Positions 1 through 4,305 of a stretch of DNA of 4,305 nucleotides are shown one piece after another; positions within the stretch are counted from its first letter, which is position 1; each line of letters starts with the position of its first letter. The position numbers and the translations under genes were made by a program. Source of the DNA: a virus (Duplodnaviria; Heunggongvirae; Uroviricota; Caudoviricetes); IMG/VR virus record IMGVR_UViG_2531839207_000033. The stretch is one strand, 5' to 3'. The notes beneath the pieces were generated by a model. That model was given only the letters and a program-made list of their open reading frames with translations. It did no database searches and was not told where the DNA came from.

Positions 1-100
1 TATTCTGCCGTTATGGAATACTGACATTGATTCACGGCCTGGCTTAACGATAACCAGACTGAGTTCCGGTACCAGAACAGGTCGAAGTAATACCCGCACG

Positions 101-373
101 TTACCTCCAGATGCGTTGCTGATATGTGCGGGACGGACGCGGCGGGCGTTCGGAATAAGGGAGCCTGACGGAAATTATCCAGCGTCGGAAGTCAGGACTG
201 AGGCCTTTCTGAAACTGGTATCCACGTCTGCGGTAATTCTGAATCAGCCACTCGGCCTGTTCTTCAGTGCATTGGTCATGCTGGTACCAGTCATATTTGA
301 ATGCGTGAGAGCGCCGTCCGTGTCTGCTGGCAGGGTCGGCATCAGAATTGTGGTGTTTGGTATTGTGCGCCAT
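101..373 (-). CDS. Small basic hypothetical protein (about 90 aa from the ATG at 373; the listed 117-aa ORF begins at a TTG at 454 that overlaps the terminator T-tract)
   Basis: Minus-strand ORF 101..454 is open throughout; the first in-frame ATG is at 373..371 (MAHNTKHH...). The composition is protein-like (W/Y/D/E/H/Q rich, e.g. KYDWYQHDQCTEEQAEWLIQNYRRRGYQFQ), whereas the overlapping plus-strand frame (open 2..487) is R/V/G/A/S-rich, typical of an antisense frame. No family recognised. Only a weak Shine-Dalgarno (GAGA) precedes the ATG. Confidence 0.4.
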   Translation of the reverse strand: MAHNTKHHNSDADPASRHGRRSHAFKYDWYQHDQCTEEQAEWLIQNYRRRGYQFQKGLSPDFRRWIISVRLPYSERPPRPSRTYQQRIWR

Positions 374-445
374 CGGTTGTCTCTGCTGGCGCAGCAGGTG
401 CCAGTTGTTCAGGCTGGCGTGTGGATTGTAAACCAGAATGCCAGG

Positions 446-471
446 AAAAAACAAAACCCGCGAAGCGGGTT
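446..471 (-). terminator. Rho-independent terminator of the restriction-modification operon
   Basis: Plus strand 455..471 is AACCCGC-GAA-GCGGGTT, a perfect 7-bp stem with a 3-nt loop. Read on the minus strand the hairpin is followed directly by TTGTTTTTT (454..446). It lies 72 nt downstream of the endonuclease stop at 544. There is no T-run after it on the plus strand, so it is orientation-specific for minus-strand transcripts. Confidence 0.6.
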
Positions 472-543
472 AGTAAAAATGTACTGAAGTCAATGACGTG
501 CCATCACAGTTAAAATATGACAGACTCTATTTACGTAGAGATG

Positions 544-1422
544 TCAGACTGCAAGATCCAAGGGAAGATCAGAAATATCCTTTAATCTTTTACCATTAAC
601 CATCACGGAAAGCATGTCAGCTGCATCGCTGAGCCCCAGTATTTCAACTGCTGATATAAGTTCATAAAGCGCAAAATGATACACGCAATCTATATCACCA
701 GTACCAAGAGCAATAGACGCCAGACGACTTGGAGTAGGCTCAGCAGTAACAACCATTACATGAGGGAGATTTCCCTTACGGTTGCGAATAAGATTTAATG
801 CCTCAGAACGAGCATTCTGGGCCCGGTCGCTTCTTATTGTCCATTTGCAGGAAATACTTGCGTGTAATATTGGTTTCCCACCATTCGAACTCCTGAGAGC
901 TGACATGCGGGTAACAGAATCATCCACCAGTAATTCAGGACTGTTGATAACTTGATCACATTCAGGTTCTCTTTCAACAATAATATCTGGTGAAATCGTA
1001 TAATCACTCCCCAGTGCAGCAGCTAGCTGAGGATTACTTTTTGCAGCACTATCCAATGCTATAAGATGGGCATATTGTTCATATTTAGCTATCTCTAATC
1101 TGTTTCTACCAGAAACCTGATGTACATTCCATTTTCCAGGGCGTAAGTGGCTGAGTTTAAAAAAGGTTTTTTCTATAAACTCTGCGCAGATACTCTCAAA
1201 CTGATTACCAGATGTTTGCCCTGCAACACGTTCACCAATCGTTTCAGCCTGCAAGAAGCGAGCAATTTCTCTTGCTATAGCTTTACTGTTTTTGTTACTG
1301 CTATCTGCGTTACTAACAACTCCGGCAGTATTAATTGTGAGCGTATTCAGTAACAATTGGGCATGAAACTCCTTTCTGGCTTCAGCAAAACCAACTATGC
1401 TGTCAACCAAATCTCCATTCAT
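544..1422 (-). CDS. Type II restriction endonuclease, NgoMIV family (PD-(D/E)XK variant, CCGG-core recognising); 292 aa from the ATG at 1422
   Basis: Contains ...HASISCKWTIRSDRAQNARSE..., i.e. the S-x-K...E catalytic arrangement and the R-x-D-R CCGG-recognition motif of the NgoMIV/Cfr10I/Bse634I family, plus an upstream SPD acidic residue. Numbered from the ATG at 1422, the residues E76, D146, K193, R197, D199, R200, E207, and also D40 and R233, all sit exactly 6 positions after the NgoMIV residues as I recall them from the literature (E70, D140, K187, R191, D193, R194, E201, D34, R227). The ATG at 1422 is preceded by AGGA at 9-nt spacing and sits 13 nt after the methyltransferase stop. The ORF is also open for 45 codons further upstream (to 1557), overlapping the methyltransferase 3' end; that extension is judged non-coding. 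Confidence 0.85.
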   Translation of the reverse strand: MNGDLVDSIVGFAEARKEFHAQLLLNTLTINTAGVVSNADSSNKNSKAIAREIARFLQAETIGERVAGQTSGNQFESICAEFIEKTFFKLSHLRPGKWNVHQVSGRNRLEIAKYEQYAHLIALDSAAKSNPQLAAALGSDYTISPDIIVEREPECDQVINSPELLVDDSVTRMSALRSSNGGKPILHASISCKWTIRSDRAQNARSEALNLIRNRKGNLPHVMVVTAEPTPSRLASIALGTGDIDCVYHFALYELISAVEILGLSDAADMLSVMVNGKRLKDISDLPLDLAV

Positions 1423-1435
1423 TTCTGGATTTCCT

Positions 1436-2560
1436 TCAGGCTGCTTGACTATTCTTACTGATGTTATTCTTATACCGTCCCTGCAAAACTCCATACACAT
1501 ATTGTGCGATTTTTGCCGCAAATAGCGGTGGAACAGCATTCCCGATCTGCTTTGCAATCTCAGTTTTTGAACCGGTAAAAATGAAATTATCAGGAAAAGA
1601 CATTAATCTCGCTGCCTCACGATGAGTTATTGGCCGATCCTCTTCCGGATGTAAATATCGCCCTTTCTCCGGTTTGAAAAACTCAGTACGAATCGTTACT
1701 GAAGGTCTGTCCCACCACAGACGTCCAAACAAATCGGTCCCTCCAGATTTCTTTTTTAGCCAGCACGCCGGGGTTATATCAGGTCTTTTTTTCTGTAAAT
1801 CGAAACGGTTACCTCCTGGTGGAACCGCTTTATATCGCTCCAGAGAAACAGGTGTGGGATTACGCCCAAAATGTAAGTTCAGCGGAGGAAGTTCATTACG
1901 AATATCAGCTCCAACAGGAGCAGGTAAGTCACCAATTGCATCACGCGTACAGACCCATTCAGGCAAAGCGACATCCTTATCAGGGGAACGATGCGTTGGT
2001 GCTGGCGGGAACGCCGGAATACTATGCACATCGAAGAGTTCTCGTTTGATACCGATTGCTATCGTTCGTTTTCTTGTCTGAGGTACTCCATAGTCAGCAG
2101 TATTCAACACCATTGGATTAAGCAGAATAAAGCCCATGGATTTCGCTCTAAACGTAATGTCCGCAAACTCATCGCTTATCAGCAATCCGGGGACATTTTC
2201 CATGACGAACATACAAGCCCTTGAACGCTCAATGACATCCATATAAGGCTCCCACAATGCTCTTCGGTGATCACCATAACGATTCTTATTCAATAAACTG
2301 AATCCCTGACACGGGGGGCCACCTATGACCACATCAGCCTCAGGAACAGTATTGCTGGATGCCCACTCCTCAATATTTGCCTGAACTCCATGCAAACCAA
2401 AATTGGCATTGTAGGTATTTATAGCTGCAGCATTATTATCAATAGCAAGGATACTTTCAAAGTAGTCAGACATCTCTCCATGAAGAAAACCATAAGATAA
2501 TCCACCTGCCCCACAAAAGAGGTCTATCACTCTGAATTTATTTAATTCTTTCATCCGCAT
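1436..2560 (-). CDS. DNA (cytosine-5)-methyltransferase, the modification subunit of the Type II system; 374 aa
   Basis: Canonical m5C methyltransferase motifs in the right order: motif I DLFCGAGGLSYGF (AdoMet binding), motif IV GGPPCQGFS (catalytic Pro-Cys), motif VI FVMENVPGLL, motif VIII GVPQTRKRTIAIG, and C-terminal motif X QIGNAVPPLFA, with a long variable target-recognition region between VIII and X. The ATG at 2560 is preceded by GAGG at about 7-nt spacing. Motif I starts near residue 13, so there is no N-terminal regulatory extension. Confidence 0.9.
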   Translation of the reverse strand: MRMKELNKFRVIDLFCGAGGLSYGFLHGEMSDYFESILAIDNNAAAINTYNANFGLHGVQANIEEWASSNTVPEADVVIGGPPCQGFSLLNKNRYGDHRRALWEPYMDVIERSRACMFVMENVPGLLISDEFADITFRAKSMGFILLNPMVLNTADYGVPQTRKRTIAIGIKRELFDVHSIPAFPPAPTHRSPDKDVALPEWVCTRDAIGDLPAPVGADIRNELPPLNLHFGRNPTPVSLERYKAVPPGGNRFDLQKKRPDITPACWLKKKSGGTDLFGRLWWDRPSVTIRTEFFKPEKGRYLHPEEDRPITHREAARLMSFPDNFIFTGSKTEIAKQIGNAVPPLFAAKIAQYVYGVLQGRYKNNISKNSQAA

Positions 2561-2643
2561 CCATATGCCTCAGATTAATGTTGAGCGTCTTACAGGACGC
2601 GTAATGTTAACTGGGGCTTTCTCTATCTGCCTTTTGGTGTTCA

Positions 2644-2668
2644 TGCCTGAGGCAGACAGCCTCAGGCA
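2644..2668. promoter_or_regulatory. Perfect 10-bp inverted repeat (TGCCTGAGGC-agaca-GCCTCAGGCA): candidate operator or 5'-UTR stem-loop of the restriction-modification transcript
   Basis: Read directly from the sequence: arms 2644..2653 and 2659..2668 are exact reverse complements with a 5-nt spacer. It lies 2-4 nt downstream of the predicted transcription start of the promoter at 2678..2706. No flanking T-tract on either strand, so it is not a canonical intrinsic terminator. Confidence 0.5.
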
Positions 2669-2677
2669 CCCGCAGCA

Positions 2678-2706
2678 ATTCTACTTAACTCACGTCACCT
2701 CGCCAA
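2678..2706 (-). promoter_or_regulatory. Putative sigma70 promoter for the methyltransferase-endonuclease operon
   Basis: On the minus strand: -35 TTGGCG (2706..2701), a 17-nt spacer, then -10 TAGAAT (2683..2678). The predicted transcription start is near 2670, about 110 nt upstream of the methyltransferase ATG. It lies in the 178-bp gap between the queH-like stop (2739) and the methyltransferase start (2560). Predicted by eye only. Confidence 0.4.
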
Positions 2707-2738
2707 TATGAAATCAATCAGAAAGGTGATCCATAAAA

Positions 2739-3425
2739 TCACTCCTTCTCTTCTTTTCCGTAGTGGAGTTGGCCAATTTTGATAAGAGGGCGTCCCTGAG
2801 ATTTGCGGTGTAGATTGGTATCGCGCAGAGAATACACACAGCCACAATATTCCTGCTGATAGAATTTTTCGCGCTTGCTGATTTCAATCATACGGGACGA
2901 GCCGCCCTGCTTGCGCCAGTTATAATCCCAGTACACCATACCCGGATAATGCGCAACAGCTCGCCGCCCACACTCGTTAACCTGCTGCATATTTTTCCAG
3001 CGTGAAATGCCCAGTGAACTGCTGATCACACTGAAACCATTTTCAGCAGCGTACAACGCTGTCCGCTCAAAACGCATGTCAAAACACATGGTACAACGGA
3101 TCCCCCTCTCAGGCTCCCATTCCATTCCTTTGGCACGTTCAAACCAGTTGTCGGTGTCGTAATCAGCATCGATAAACGGCACGCCGTGTTGTTCAGCAAA
3201 GCGAATATTTTCATCCTTACGAATTAAATACTCTTTCTGAGGATGAATGTTCGGGTTGTAGAAAAAGATGGTGTAGTCGATTCCCGAGGCCTGAAGCGCC
3301 TCCATCACTTCACCGGAACATGGAGCACAGCAAGAGTGCAGTAGTAGTTTGTTTGCCCCGTTTGGGAGCTCCAATTTAGGCCGTTTGAAATCAGCAATAG
3401 TCATAAATATTTTTATTGGGGTCAT
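2739..3425 (-). CDS. queH: QueH-family (DUF208) epoxyqueuosine reductase-like iron-sulfur protein; 228 aa from the ATG at 3425 (alternative ATG at 3404 gives 221 aa)
   Basis: N-terminal [12 protein letters not shown] motif followed by FYNPNIHP, then [10 protein letters not shown] and EYCGCVYS. I recognise this Cys-rich pattern as the hallmark of the DUF208/QueH family (the non-cobalamin epoxyqueuosine reductase). The ORF is intact. Neither candidate ATG has a strong Shine-Dalgarno sequence. The assignment is from memory of family motifs, not a search. Confidence 0.65.
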
Positions 3426-3578
3426 GAAAATAGCACAGAGTGTAGCATCAGAGCAGGGCTATCGGGAATATATGTCTAAATCTGGTAATATCTGGTTTTG
3501 ACGCAAAGCGGACAACCACGCTGGCTCTACCCTGCGCCATGAAAATGTCAATTCACATCTGAACTAATGCTCTTTAAT

Positions 3579-4004
3579 CTAGTAACGTCTAAAATACCTA
3601 ACATTTCCTTGATAAAATGCCAGTACACGCTGCATAGCTTCGCTCTTCCGGCACTCGCGACAGATTATATTCAGGCGCCTGTCGTAGCGGCGTATTTCGC
3701 CGTCTGGTAACGACCAGATAAGGTCCGGATCAACCACAACCGGTTTCTTCAGTTTTGCCCTCGATAGTTTTTTGCGGGCATTTTGCCAGTCCTTACGAGC
3801 CTGTTCAGACGGGAATAACCCGTAACCAGAGTTGTATACATCGCCACTGACAACCAGCTCTCTGGTGAGAACGCTCATCAGATATCTTGTCGCACCTGTC
3901 TTGGCTTCCAGTTGCCGCAACGTCTCGCGACCGCTCAGACGTACAAGTTCAACAACCTGCCCTTTAATTTTTTCCCGCTCTTCTTGTGTAAATGCTTTTG
4001 CCAT
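3579..4004 (-). CDS. Hypothetical protein with a probable N-terminal winged-helix DNA-binding fold; 141 aa from the ATG at 4004
   Basis: The listed ORF starts at a TTG at 4019, but the in-frame ATG at 4004 (MAKAFTQEEREKI...) is preceded by GGAGG at about 6-nt spacing. The N-terminal segment KIKGQVVELVRLSGRETLRQLEAKTGATRYLMSVLTRELVVSGDV has a helix-turn-helix-plus-wing pattern. The C-terminal part contains CRECRK. No family confidently recognised. Confidence 0.5.
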   Translation of the reverse strand: MAKAFTQEEREKIKGQVVELVRLSGRETLRQLEAKTGATRYLMSVLTRELVVSGDVYNSGYGLFPSEQARKDWQNARKKLSRAKLKKPVVVDPDLIWSLPDGEIRRYDRRLNIICRECRKSEAMQRVLAFYQGNVRYFRRY

Positions 4005-4019
4005 AAGCGCCTCCGGCAA

Positions 4020-4305
4020 TCACTTTTCCGATACAACACGGCGGGAAGAATCAGTAATCTGTCGAACAATATCCCGGTGCTTGTTCAGCTCCCGCAGCGC
4101 GGCGCAGACTCGCTCCCACTTCTGAACCTGACCTTTTGCCCGGCGCAGCTCGCGGTTAGCCACATGCAGCGATGGTAAAATCAGCCCATCCGGATGCTTT
4201 CTGGTGAACAACGGCTGTGACTGCACTGTGACCGCCACACTTTCAGTTTTTATTTCTTCCTGTGTCGTCGTTTCCTGGACTGGTAACGCAACACCTGTTG
4301 GCTGA
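4020..4305 (-). CDS. 3' part of a hypothetical protein gene that starts beyond the right edge of the window (partial)
   Basis: The listed 72-aa ORF begins at a GTG at 4238, but the same frame stays open with no stop to the window edge (upstream in-frame translation QPTGVALPVQETTTQEEIKTES...). The stop TGA at 4022..4020 lies 15 nt before the ATG of the next gene, suggesting an operon. Function unknown. Confidence 0.4.
   Translation of the reverse strand, partial: QPTGVALPVQETTTQEEIKTESVAVTVQSQPLFTRKHPDGLILPSLHVANRELRRAKGQVQKWERVCAALRELNKHRDIVRQITDSSRRVVSEK

Follow-up and report, generated by a model that had tools for sequence, protein, structure and literature searches.

A DUF1627-DUF977 gene pair closing the replication block of a lambdoid Escherichia coli prophage, with DUF977 as a member of the Ren family

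What are the two open reading frames (ORFs) that lie upstream of a queH gene and a restriction-modification (R-M) cassette in IMG/VR virus record IMGVR_UViG_2531839207_000033, and does one of them control that cassette? The window is the whole stretch of 4305 bases analyzed from this Caudoviricetes record; all coordinates refer to it, and every gene in it lies on the minus strand. An initial annotation could assign neither ORF to a known family. It proposed that the second one, a 141-residue protein with a winged-helix-like N-terminus, is a candidate regulator of the defence cassette or else part of a mobile-element backbone. In this study, both ORFs matched named families, DUF1627 (PF07789) and DUF977 (PF06163), and as a pair they come last in the replication block of the early-right (pR-type) operon in a lambdoid E. 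coli prophage. DUF977 is a member of the Ren family and occupies lambda's ren slot after helicase-loader genes. We hold the identity and context of the two genes with high confidence. The pair comprises the following features.

4020..4305, minus strand: C-terminal fragment of a DUF1627-family gene, 94 codons plus stop (PF07789, E 3.2e-41)
4005..4019, minus strand: 15-nucleotide spacer TTGCCGGAGGCGCTT, with the Shine-Dalgarno sequence GGAGG at 4014-4010, 5 nucleotides 5' of the ATG at 4004-4002
3579..4004, minus strand: DUF977-family (Ren-like) gene, 141 residues, isoelectric point (pI) 10.1, TAG at 3581-3579 (PF06163, E 1.5e-27)
3750..3986, minus strand: winged-helix domain and the following helix, residues 7-85 (AlphaFold2 model)
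3612..3686, minus strand: C-terminal Ren motif, residues 107-131, YDRRLNIICRECRKSEAMQRVLAFY, common to lambda Ren

Reading the sequence confirmed the layout that had been described. The upstream ORF is open at the window edge, runs from 4304 downwards and ends in SRRVVSEK before its TGA (4022-4020). A 15-nucleotide gap with GGAGG leads to the ATG of the 141-residue protein, which carries NIICRECRKSEAMQRVLAFY, including CRECRK. The co-orientation of both ORFs with queH, the methyltransferase and the endonuclease was confirmed as well. Moreover, the two ORFs share one reading frame, and the AAGTGATTGCCGGAGGCGCTT-ATG junction (TGA, 15 nucleotides, ATG) is kept in 47 of 56 related loci. The 94-residue fragment scores 141.2 bits against PF07789 (cut-off 28.1) over profile positions 73-155 of 155, and residues 1-135 of the 141-residue protein score 96.8 bits against PF06163 (cut-off 22.1) over positions 1-133 of 134. 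Additionally, synonymous codon changes outnumber non-synonymous ones between DUF977 alleles (7:4, 7:5, and 19:8). Collectively, the Pfam scores and this synonymous excess argue that both ORFs are real genes. They are also already known: both belong to curated families, are annotated so in RefSeq, and form ordinary prophage backbone.

Several profile comparisons relate DUF977 to lambda Ren. The 141-residue protein falls into phrog_142, 'Ren-like exclusion protein' (E 4.5e-45), and the 96-residue lambda Ren matches the same phrog_142 (E 1.6e-41). Alignment by hhalign of a profile of 15 diverse DUF977 proteins with lambda Ren gives a probability of 95% (E 3.5e-8), and BLASTP pairs NIICRECRKSEAMQRVLAFY with NLVFKECRQSAAMKRVLAVY of lambda Ren at 12 of 20 identical residues. 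The Ren link is already encoded in PHROGs, and 'Ren-like exclusion protein' is the phage annotation in NC_029120 and PP925841. Furthermore, DUF977 is 87-95% identical to LygF/Ren-like proteins of Rac-type and Stx phages, and its closest database cluster is 96% identical. The family is narrow: at 50% identity, 1.84 billion proteins contain 99 representatives, many of which are fragments, and its carriers are essentially Escherichia/Shigella and other Enterobacteriaceae. A scan of genome contigs for DUF977 returned 12 loci, mostly from Escherichia/Shigella and from probably mis-binned contigs of metagenome-assembled genomes (MAGs). Near-identical E. coli prophage DUF977 regions, with 88-93% protein identity, occur under a Collinsella MAG (L008, L009) and a Veillonella MAG (L011), and these are probably mis-binned E. 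coli prophage contigs. A scan with the single divergent DUF977 protein P0211 gave no match, the PADLOC defence-system models matched neither DUF977 nor lambda Ren, and no functional study was found in the literature on DUF977 and LygF.

Based on the AlphaFold2 model of the 141-residue protein, built from a 15-sequence alignment with a mean predicted local distance difference test (pLDDT) value of 76, residues 7-85 fold confidently (pLDDT ~90) into three helices, a beta-hairpin wing, and a further helix. The winged-helix-like N-terminus noticed initially is thereby borne out, as a generic winged helix. The C-terminal half is uncertain (pLDDT 53-72), and no solved structure of a DUF977 relative was found. 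The family-conserved residues of the N-domain are G25, R26, T28, G37, Y57, G62, F64, and W73. In the family alignment, the wing (Y57, G62, and F64), W73, and the C-terminal motif are invariant, and the recognition helix (~residues 40-53) is poorly conserved. For comparison, the hallmark of Zalpha domains (ADAR1/ZBP1) is an Asn and a Tyr in the recognition helix and a Trp in the wing. A modeled winged-helix fold alone does not tell DNA binding from protein binding. In one alternative, DUF977 would be a sequence-specific transcription factor for downstream early or nin-region genes or for the origin, and not an anti-exclusion protein; we regard this alternative as unlikely.

The C-terminal motif is the part of DUF977 that is clearly shared with lambda Ren. 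Y107, N112, C115, E117, C118, R119, S121, M124, R126, and F130 are invariant in the DUF977 alignment, and the Ren-motif pattern N-x-[IV]-[CF]-x-E-C-R-x-S-x-x-M-x-R-[VI]-L is present in DUF977 as well as in phage proteins of 114 and 192 residues. A zinc-binding CxxC in this segment was considered and rejected; a zinc site is unlikely because the protein has two Cys and no His and because lambda Ren has Phe in place of the first Cys. The 114-residue protein, found by a motif scan of viral contigs, consists of one winged helix and the Ren motif. In the 192-residue protein, residues 3-70 resemble the DUF977 N-domain (hhalign 98.7%, E 2.4e-16), and residues 101-188 resemble lambda Ren (35% identity over 89 residues, E 7e-12). 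These two architectures suggest that the Ren family is modular. Ren would consist of a Ren-type winged helix plus the motif, and DUF977 of a different winged helix plus a helix, a linker, and the motif. The element common to all forms is the invariant C-terminal motif, and the 192-residue form has both winged helices. Although hhalign aligns the winged helices of DUF977 and lambda Ren, the 192-residue relative has both as separate domains, and the two are therefore probably not orthologous. At loci L099-L190, from viral contigs, at least three Ren-motif architectures were seen, namely 114 residues, 192 residues, and DUF977-like proteins of 131-141 residues.

To place the pair in its genome, we compared the window with 5426 complete E. 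coli genomes, the set used for all genome counts. E. coli chromosomes match the whole window at up to 98.7% identity, and parts of it are present in 4755 of these genomes. A prophage that matches at 98.7% is lambdoid and is integrated beside rspB in E. coli O111:H11 strain 88.0502 (locus L001). Its gene order runs from integrase, excisionase, exonuclease, and dicB to a cI-type repressor. Divergent from cI run cro, ydaT, an O-like initiator, a DnaC-like helicase loader, DUF1627 (256 residues), and DUF977. These are followed by queH, a C5 methyltransferase, an NgoMIV-family endonuclease, small ORFs, DUF968, RusA, and the Q antiterminator, and then by lysis and packaging genes. The ydaT gene occupies the cII position, and PHROG scans identified the neighbours as CII-like, an O-like replication initiation protein (E 4e-115), and a DnaC-like helicase loader (E 8e-82). 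DUF1627 and DUF977 thus close the replication block and precede the variable 'nin-region' cargo, which is represented here by queH and by an R-M cassette inside a hok/sok locus. The fallback suggestion of the initial annotation, a mobile-element backbone, was right.

The surroundings of DUF977 were then surveyed at 97 loci (5 from E. coli, 12 from genome contigs, and 80 from viral contigs). In 85 loci, mostly close relatives, a gene ends within 150 nucleotides upstream of DUF977; it is DUF1627 in 47, an O-like initiator in 34, and a DnaC-like loader in 4, and nothing else was seen. Upstream of distant motif-bearing genes, the 77 distinct proteins comprise 35 P-like loaders, 23 DnaB-like helicases, 14 DnaC-like loaders, 4 DUF1627 proteins, and 3 RecE-like exonucleases. 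The rule that a Ren-type gene follows a helicase or loader is met by 72 of the 77, with 4 more via DUF1627. One Ren-like type follows DnaB-like, DnaC-like, and P-like genes alike. This survey agrees with the statement that every initiator/helicase-loader module carries ren (Weigel & Seitz 2006, quoted in bioRxiv 10.1101/2021.04.19.439022). In the 34 loci in which DUF977 directly follows an O-like initiator (e.g. L003 6467-7429 and L004 6450-7520), neither a loader gene nor DUF1627 is present; such loci represent defective prophages or else replication modules that need no loader of their own.

For DUF1627, a protein search with the 94-residue fragment returned only partial proteins, and a full-length relative was used as a second query. 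The full gene has 256 residues in relatives and continues past the window edge; its homologue in L001 lies at 16790..16020. The window holds part of a second linker rich in Pro, Ala, Glu, and Thr, and the long C-terminal helix (LILPSLHVANRELRRAKGQVQKWERVCAALRELNKHRDIVRQI). The full-length relative has weak winged-helix matches in Pfam, NCBIfam, and PHROG at residues 2-62 and 84-137, and in its AlphaFold2 model, of low confidence (pLDDT 52), each of two winged helices is followed by a disordered linker, and a long helix spans 197-255. DUF1627 is accordingly predicted to be a tandem winged-helix protein with a long C-terminal helix. PADLOC gave only marginal winged-helix matches for it (E ~1e-3). 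As a separate question, descent of DUF977 and DUF1627 as paralogues was considered; MAFFT aligned the two, but hhalign reached 43.6% and covered the winged helix only, and the relation was not established.

About half of the DUF977 prophages carry DUF1627, placed between loader and Ren-like gene. Given the conserved in-frame 15-nucleotide junction, DUF1627 plausibly works with DUF977. Fusions of the two are represented by two metagenome-derived database proteins, P0341 (403 residues) and P0343; in P0341, a Gly stands in place of the DUF1627 stop. These fusions may have arisen as artefacts, through sequencing or mutation, or may hint that the two genes are functionally coupled or that read-through occurs.

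A truncated form of DUF1627 is found in E. coli K-12. YdaW (L191 3753-4313) lies directly after the DnaC-like ydaV in the Rac prophage and is 55% identical to the DUF1627 relative over 154 residues, across both winged-helix domains. It has these two winged helices only, without the C-terminal helix, and no DUF977 gene follows ydaW. An assignment of YdaW as a DUF977 protein was rejected, since sequence comparison indicates a truncated DUF1627. In the literature, YdaW is listed as a putative transcription factor. The gene ydaW is also listed among prophage genes that block the retron-Sen2 toxin RcaT when overexpressed (bioRxiv 10.1101/2020.06.22.160242).

What the pair does can be approached through lambda Ren. 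Lambda ren is transcribed from pR together with O and P. According to Thomason et al. (bioRxiv 10.1101/2021.04.19.439022), these three genes have overlapping ends and are translated jointly, and Ren is described as 'likely involved in DNA replication'. Mutants in ren show poor growth on Rex+ lysogens, and suppressors of this defect lie in O and P (Toothman & Herskowitz 1980, via bioRxiv 10.1101/2021.04.19.439022). Two-hybrid assays showed interactions of both RexA and RexB with Ren and with O (bioRxiv 10.1101/2021.04.19.439022). Lambda ren is non-essential (PMC10695390), and Ren is dispensable for P-lethality and replicative killing (PMC3640518). By analogy, DUF977 would probably serve phage replication as a dispensable accessory. 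Touching proteins, and possibly DNA, at the replication complex, it would shield the replicating phage from Rex-type exclusion or abortive infection. In such a mechanism, the invariant C-terminal helix would provide the conserved contact, the variable winged helix would address a phage-specific partner or DNA, and DUF1627 would serve as a partner or adaptor of DUF977. We consider this overall reading, a replication-block DUF1627 with a Ren-like DUF977 as a Ren-type accessory, probable, with moderate confidence. The anti-exclusion role itself is a serious possibility that falls just short of an even chance. An extension, in which DUF1627 and DUF977 form a widespread two-gene counter-defence module against abortive-infection systems that sense replication complexes, builds on the action of Ren against Rex and on the listing of the truncated DUF1627 YdaW as a retron-Sen2 toxin blocker; it is speculative and on balance doubtful. 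A still less likely addition to this extension is that the conserved in-frame TGA is occasionally read through, giving a DUF1627-DUF977 fusion.

The same placement invites an alternative in which DUF1627 and DUF977 are core replication factors, that is, origin-binding or helicase-recruiting adaptors that replace part of O/P and have no role in defence evasion. Both genes are invariably placed inside the replication block or close it, DUF977 follows the O-like gene without a separate loader in 34 loci, and the suggestion of Thomason et al. on DNA replication points in this direction. However, ren is not essential for the growth of lambda (PMC10695390) and not needed for P-lethality or replicative killing (PMC3640518), DUF1627 is missing from about half of the DUF977 prophages, and Ren-like types are swapped freely among DnaB-, DnaC-, and P-type modules. 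Moreover, many of the loader-less prophages may simply be defective. We therefore judge a core role to be improbable.

Several points weigh against reading DUF977 as a Ren-type accessory. The function proposed for DUF977 and full-length DUF1627 is drawn by analogy from lambda Ren. Functional equivalence of DUF977 and Ren is not assured, because only the C-terminal motif of ~25 residues is clearly shared and the winged helices differ; within that motif, the first Cys of CxxC is Phe in lambda Ren. That one Ren-like type can follow genes of the DnaB, DnaC, or P type speaks against close pairing with a single loader, and in three loci (L179-L181) the Ren-like gene is preceded by a RecE-like exonuclease. 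The survey loci are mostly 91-96% identical, and 85 of 85 does not amount to 85 independent observations. Annotated rexAB was not seen beside cI in the L001 prophage, so that a Rex-type target is not evident in cis. Finally, the C-terminal half of the DUF977 model and the entire DUF1627 model are of low confidence.

The remaining question is whether DUF977 controls the genes downstream of it. This part of the window contains the following features.

3426..3578, minus strand: spacer between DUF977 and queH (consensus scan)
2739..3425, minus strand: queH, epoxyqueuosine reductase, variable cargo (PF02677, E 1.1e-65)
2566..2738, minus strand: hok promoter and 5' leader, kept, including the palindrome 2644-2668 with stem GCCTGAGGC / GCCTCAGGC (Rfam RF01794)
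2560-1436, minus strand: C5 cytosine methyltransferase (PF00145, E 4.6e-54)
1422-544, minus strand: NgoMIV-family endonuclease (PF09015, E 1e-126)

The type II R-M cassette, 544..2560 on the minus strand, also matches the MTase_II and REase_II models of PADLOC. The initial annotation proposed that DUF977 regulates this cassette, with the palindrome as its operator. In that scheme, DUF977 would be a controller-type regulator of the adjacent R-M genes acting at 2644-2668. DUF977 is indeed co-oriented with the cassette, lies 1 kb upstream, and has a DNA-binding-type fold, and the palindrome is a perfect 9-bp inverted repeat 5' of the methyltransferase gene. However, the palindrome has another identity. 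The sok model of Rfam (RF01794) matches 2671..2491 on the minus strand with 61 bits (cut-off 59, E 2.8e-12); its 3' half fits poorly because hokD has been replaced. A promoter-like TTGGCG-17-TAGAAT lies at 2706-2678. In other prophages, queH is followed by the hok leader and then by hokD, and as far as ~2566 the window is near-identical to the spacer between queH and hokD in L002 and L003. At this sharp breakpoint, the R-M cassette starts, ~5 nucleotides before the methyltransferase ATG (2560). A 134-bp piece of the leader is present in ~3600 genomes without R-M genes. These comparisons identify the palindrome as the 5' hairpin of the hok mRNA in a hok/sok locus and not an R-M operator; the cassette replaced hokD, and the palindrome is older than the cassette. 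The hok promoter and leader now lie 5 nucleotides 5' of the methyltransferase start and may drive this gene. The exchange puts an R-M addiction module in the same spot as a hokD-type toxin-antitoxin addiction module.

Linkage counts also speak against a regulator. The DUF977/DUF1627 segment has a match in 4234 of the 5426 genomes, at up to 9 places per genome, and is at least 80% covered in 1830. The R-M cassette is found in 60 genomes and the whole window in 57. Conversely, R-M genes occur in 7-8 of the 97 DUF977 loci. Conserved linkage with the cassette, which the initial annotation had put forward as a check on its own idea, is thus absent, and the cassette is rare cargo unlinked to DUF977. 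The upstream neighbour of DUF977 is constant, a replication gene or DUF1627 in 85 of 85 loci of largely close relatives, whereas the downstream neighbour varies (in 90 loci, queH in 33, a small hypothetical gene in 13, and other genes in 44). Furthermore, comparison of the window with the O111:H11 prophage (L001 15501-16305 for the divergent part) reveals 1 differing base in 1-3500 and 56 in 3501-4305. This step points to a recombination (mosaic) joint within or near DUF977, between the cargo and the DUF1627/DUF977 alleles. Of these differences, 44 fall in the C-terminal part of DUF1627, where non-synonymous and synonymous changes stand at 23:10 in the disordered linker. In addition, queH intervenes between DUF977 and the cassette, DUF977 has no Xre/HTH_3-type Pfam match (HTH, helix-turn-helix), and it is not adjacent to the endonuclease gene. 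With linkage this rare, a mosaic joint, a palindrome that belongs to hok/sok, and queH in between, the regulator idea is unsupported, and we regard it as extremely improbable.

In the spacer 3426..3578, a consensus scan of the coding strand found no promoter-like or terminator-like site, so that transcription likely reads through from DUF977 into queH. The queH segment occurs in 984 of the E. coli genomes, mostly at 99% identity or more; here, this queuosine-tRNA modification gene is carried as lambdoid prophage cargo directly 3' of the Ren-like gene. On the other side of the R-M cassette, a small ORF (101-454, minus strand) matches PHROG 1212, of unassigned function (E 9e-36), and is kept ahead of DUF968 in related prophages. 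Just 3' of the endonuclease gene, at 448-505 on the minus strand, lies a hairpin with a U-run, AACCCGCTTCGCGGGTTTTGTTTT. It resembles Rfam RyhB weakly and below threshold (24 bits, cut-off 55, E 0.31) and is most simply an intrinsic terminator. A 2026 preprint reportedly describes the prophage small RNAs PasA and PasC near RusA, TerB, and DUF1627 genes.

The regulator-operator pair proposed for this locus thus does not exist, and both 'unknown' genes are prophage backbone of named families. A great many temperate phages of enterobacteria encode a Ren-type protein after a helicase or helicase loader, and DUF977 is present in ~78% of the complete E. coli genomes. If the two proteins were indeed factors against abortive infection, DUF977 and DUF1627 would be among the commonest counter-defence genes of E. 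coli. The modular layout, in which an invariant C-terminal motif is joined to one winged helix or to two, may help in the design of experiments on function. The biochemical role of Ren-type and DUF1627 proteins is nevertheless an old and small question, no more testable here than in other E. coli prophages.

Compared with lambda Ren, DUF977 shares membership of phrog_142, the motif NxI/V-C/F-xECRxSxxMxRVLxxY, and a winged helix ahead of the motif. Both genes occupy the slot directly after a helicase-loader gene in the pR operon, lambda ren standing right after P, and both proteins are basic (pI 9.9 for Ren, 10.1 for DUF977). In contrast, DUF977 is 45 residues longer, with an extra helix and a poorly conserved linker of ~25 residues, and its winged helix is apparently another domain than that of Ren. 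Where DUF977 has Cys-x-x-Cys, Ren has Phe-x-x-Cys. In the window, DUF1627 is interposed between loader and DUF977, and a 15-nucleotide gap takes the place of the overlapping stop and start codons of lambda. The anti-Rex phenotype is known for lambda Ren only. In Rac-type phages (Escherichia phage Rac-SA53, KU052037), Pfam DUF977 goes by the alias 'LygF', and the window gene is one more allele of it. Similarly, K-12 YdaW belongs to the DUF1627 family and follows the DnaC-like ydaV, as the DUF1627 relatives follow a helicase loader, whereas the window holds only the part of DUF1627 that YdaW is without. Finally, the controller (C) proteins of R-M systems are Xre-type HTH proteins of ~80 residues that are encoded beside the endonuclease gene, act at C-box operators, and travel with the cassette. 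DUF977 resembles them as a small protein with a DNA-binding fold encoded upstream of, and co-oriented with, an R-M cassette. It differs in being a winged-helix protein, in being parted from the cassette by queH and the hok leader, and in being ~70 times commoner than the cassette.

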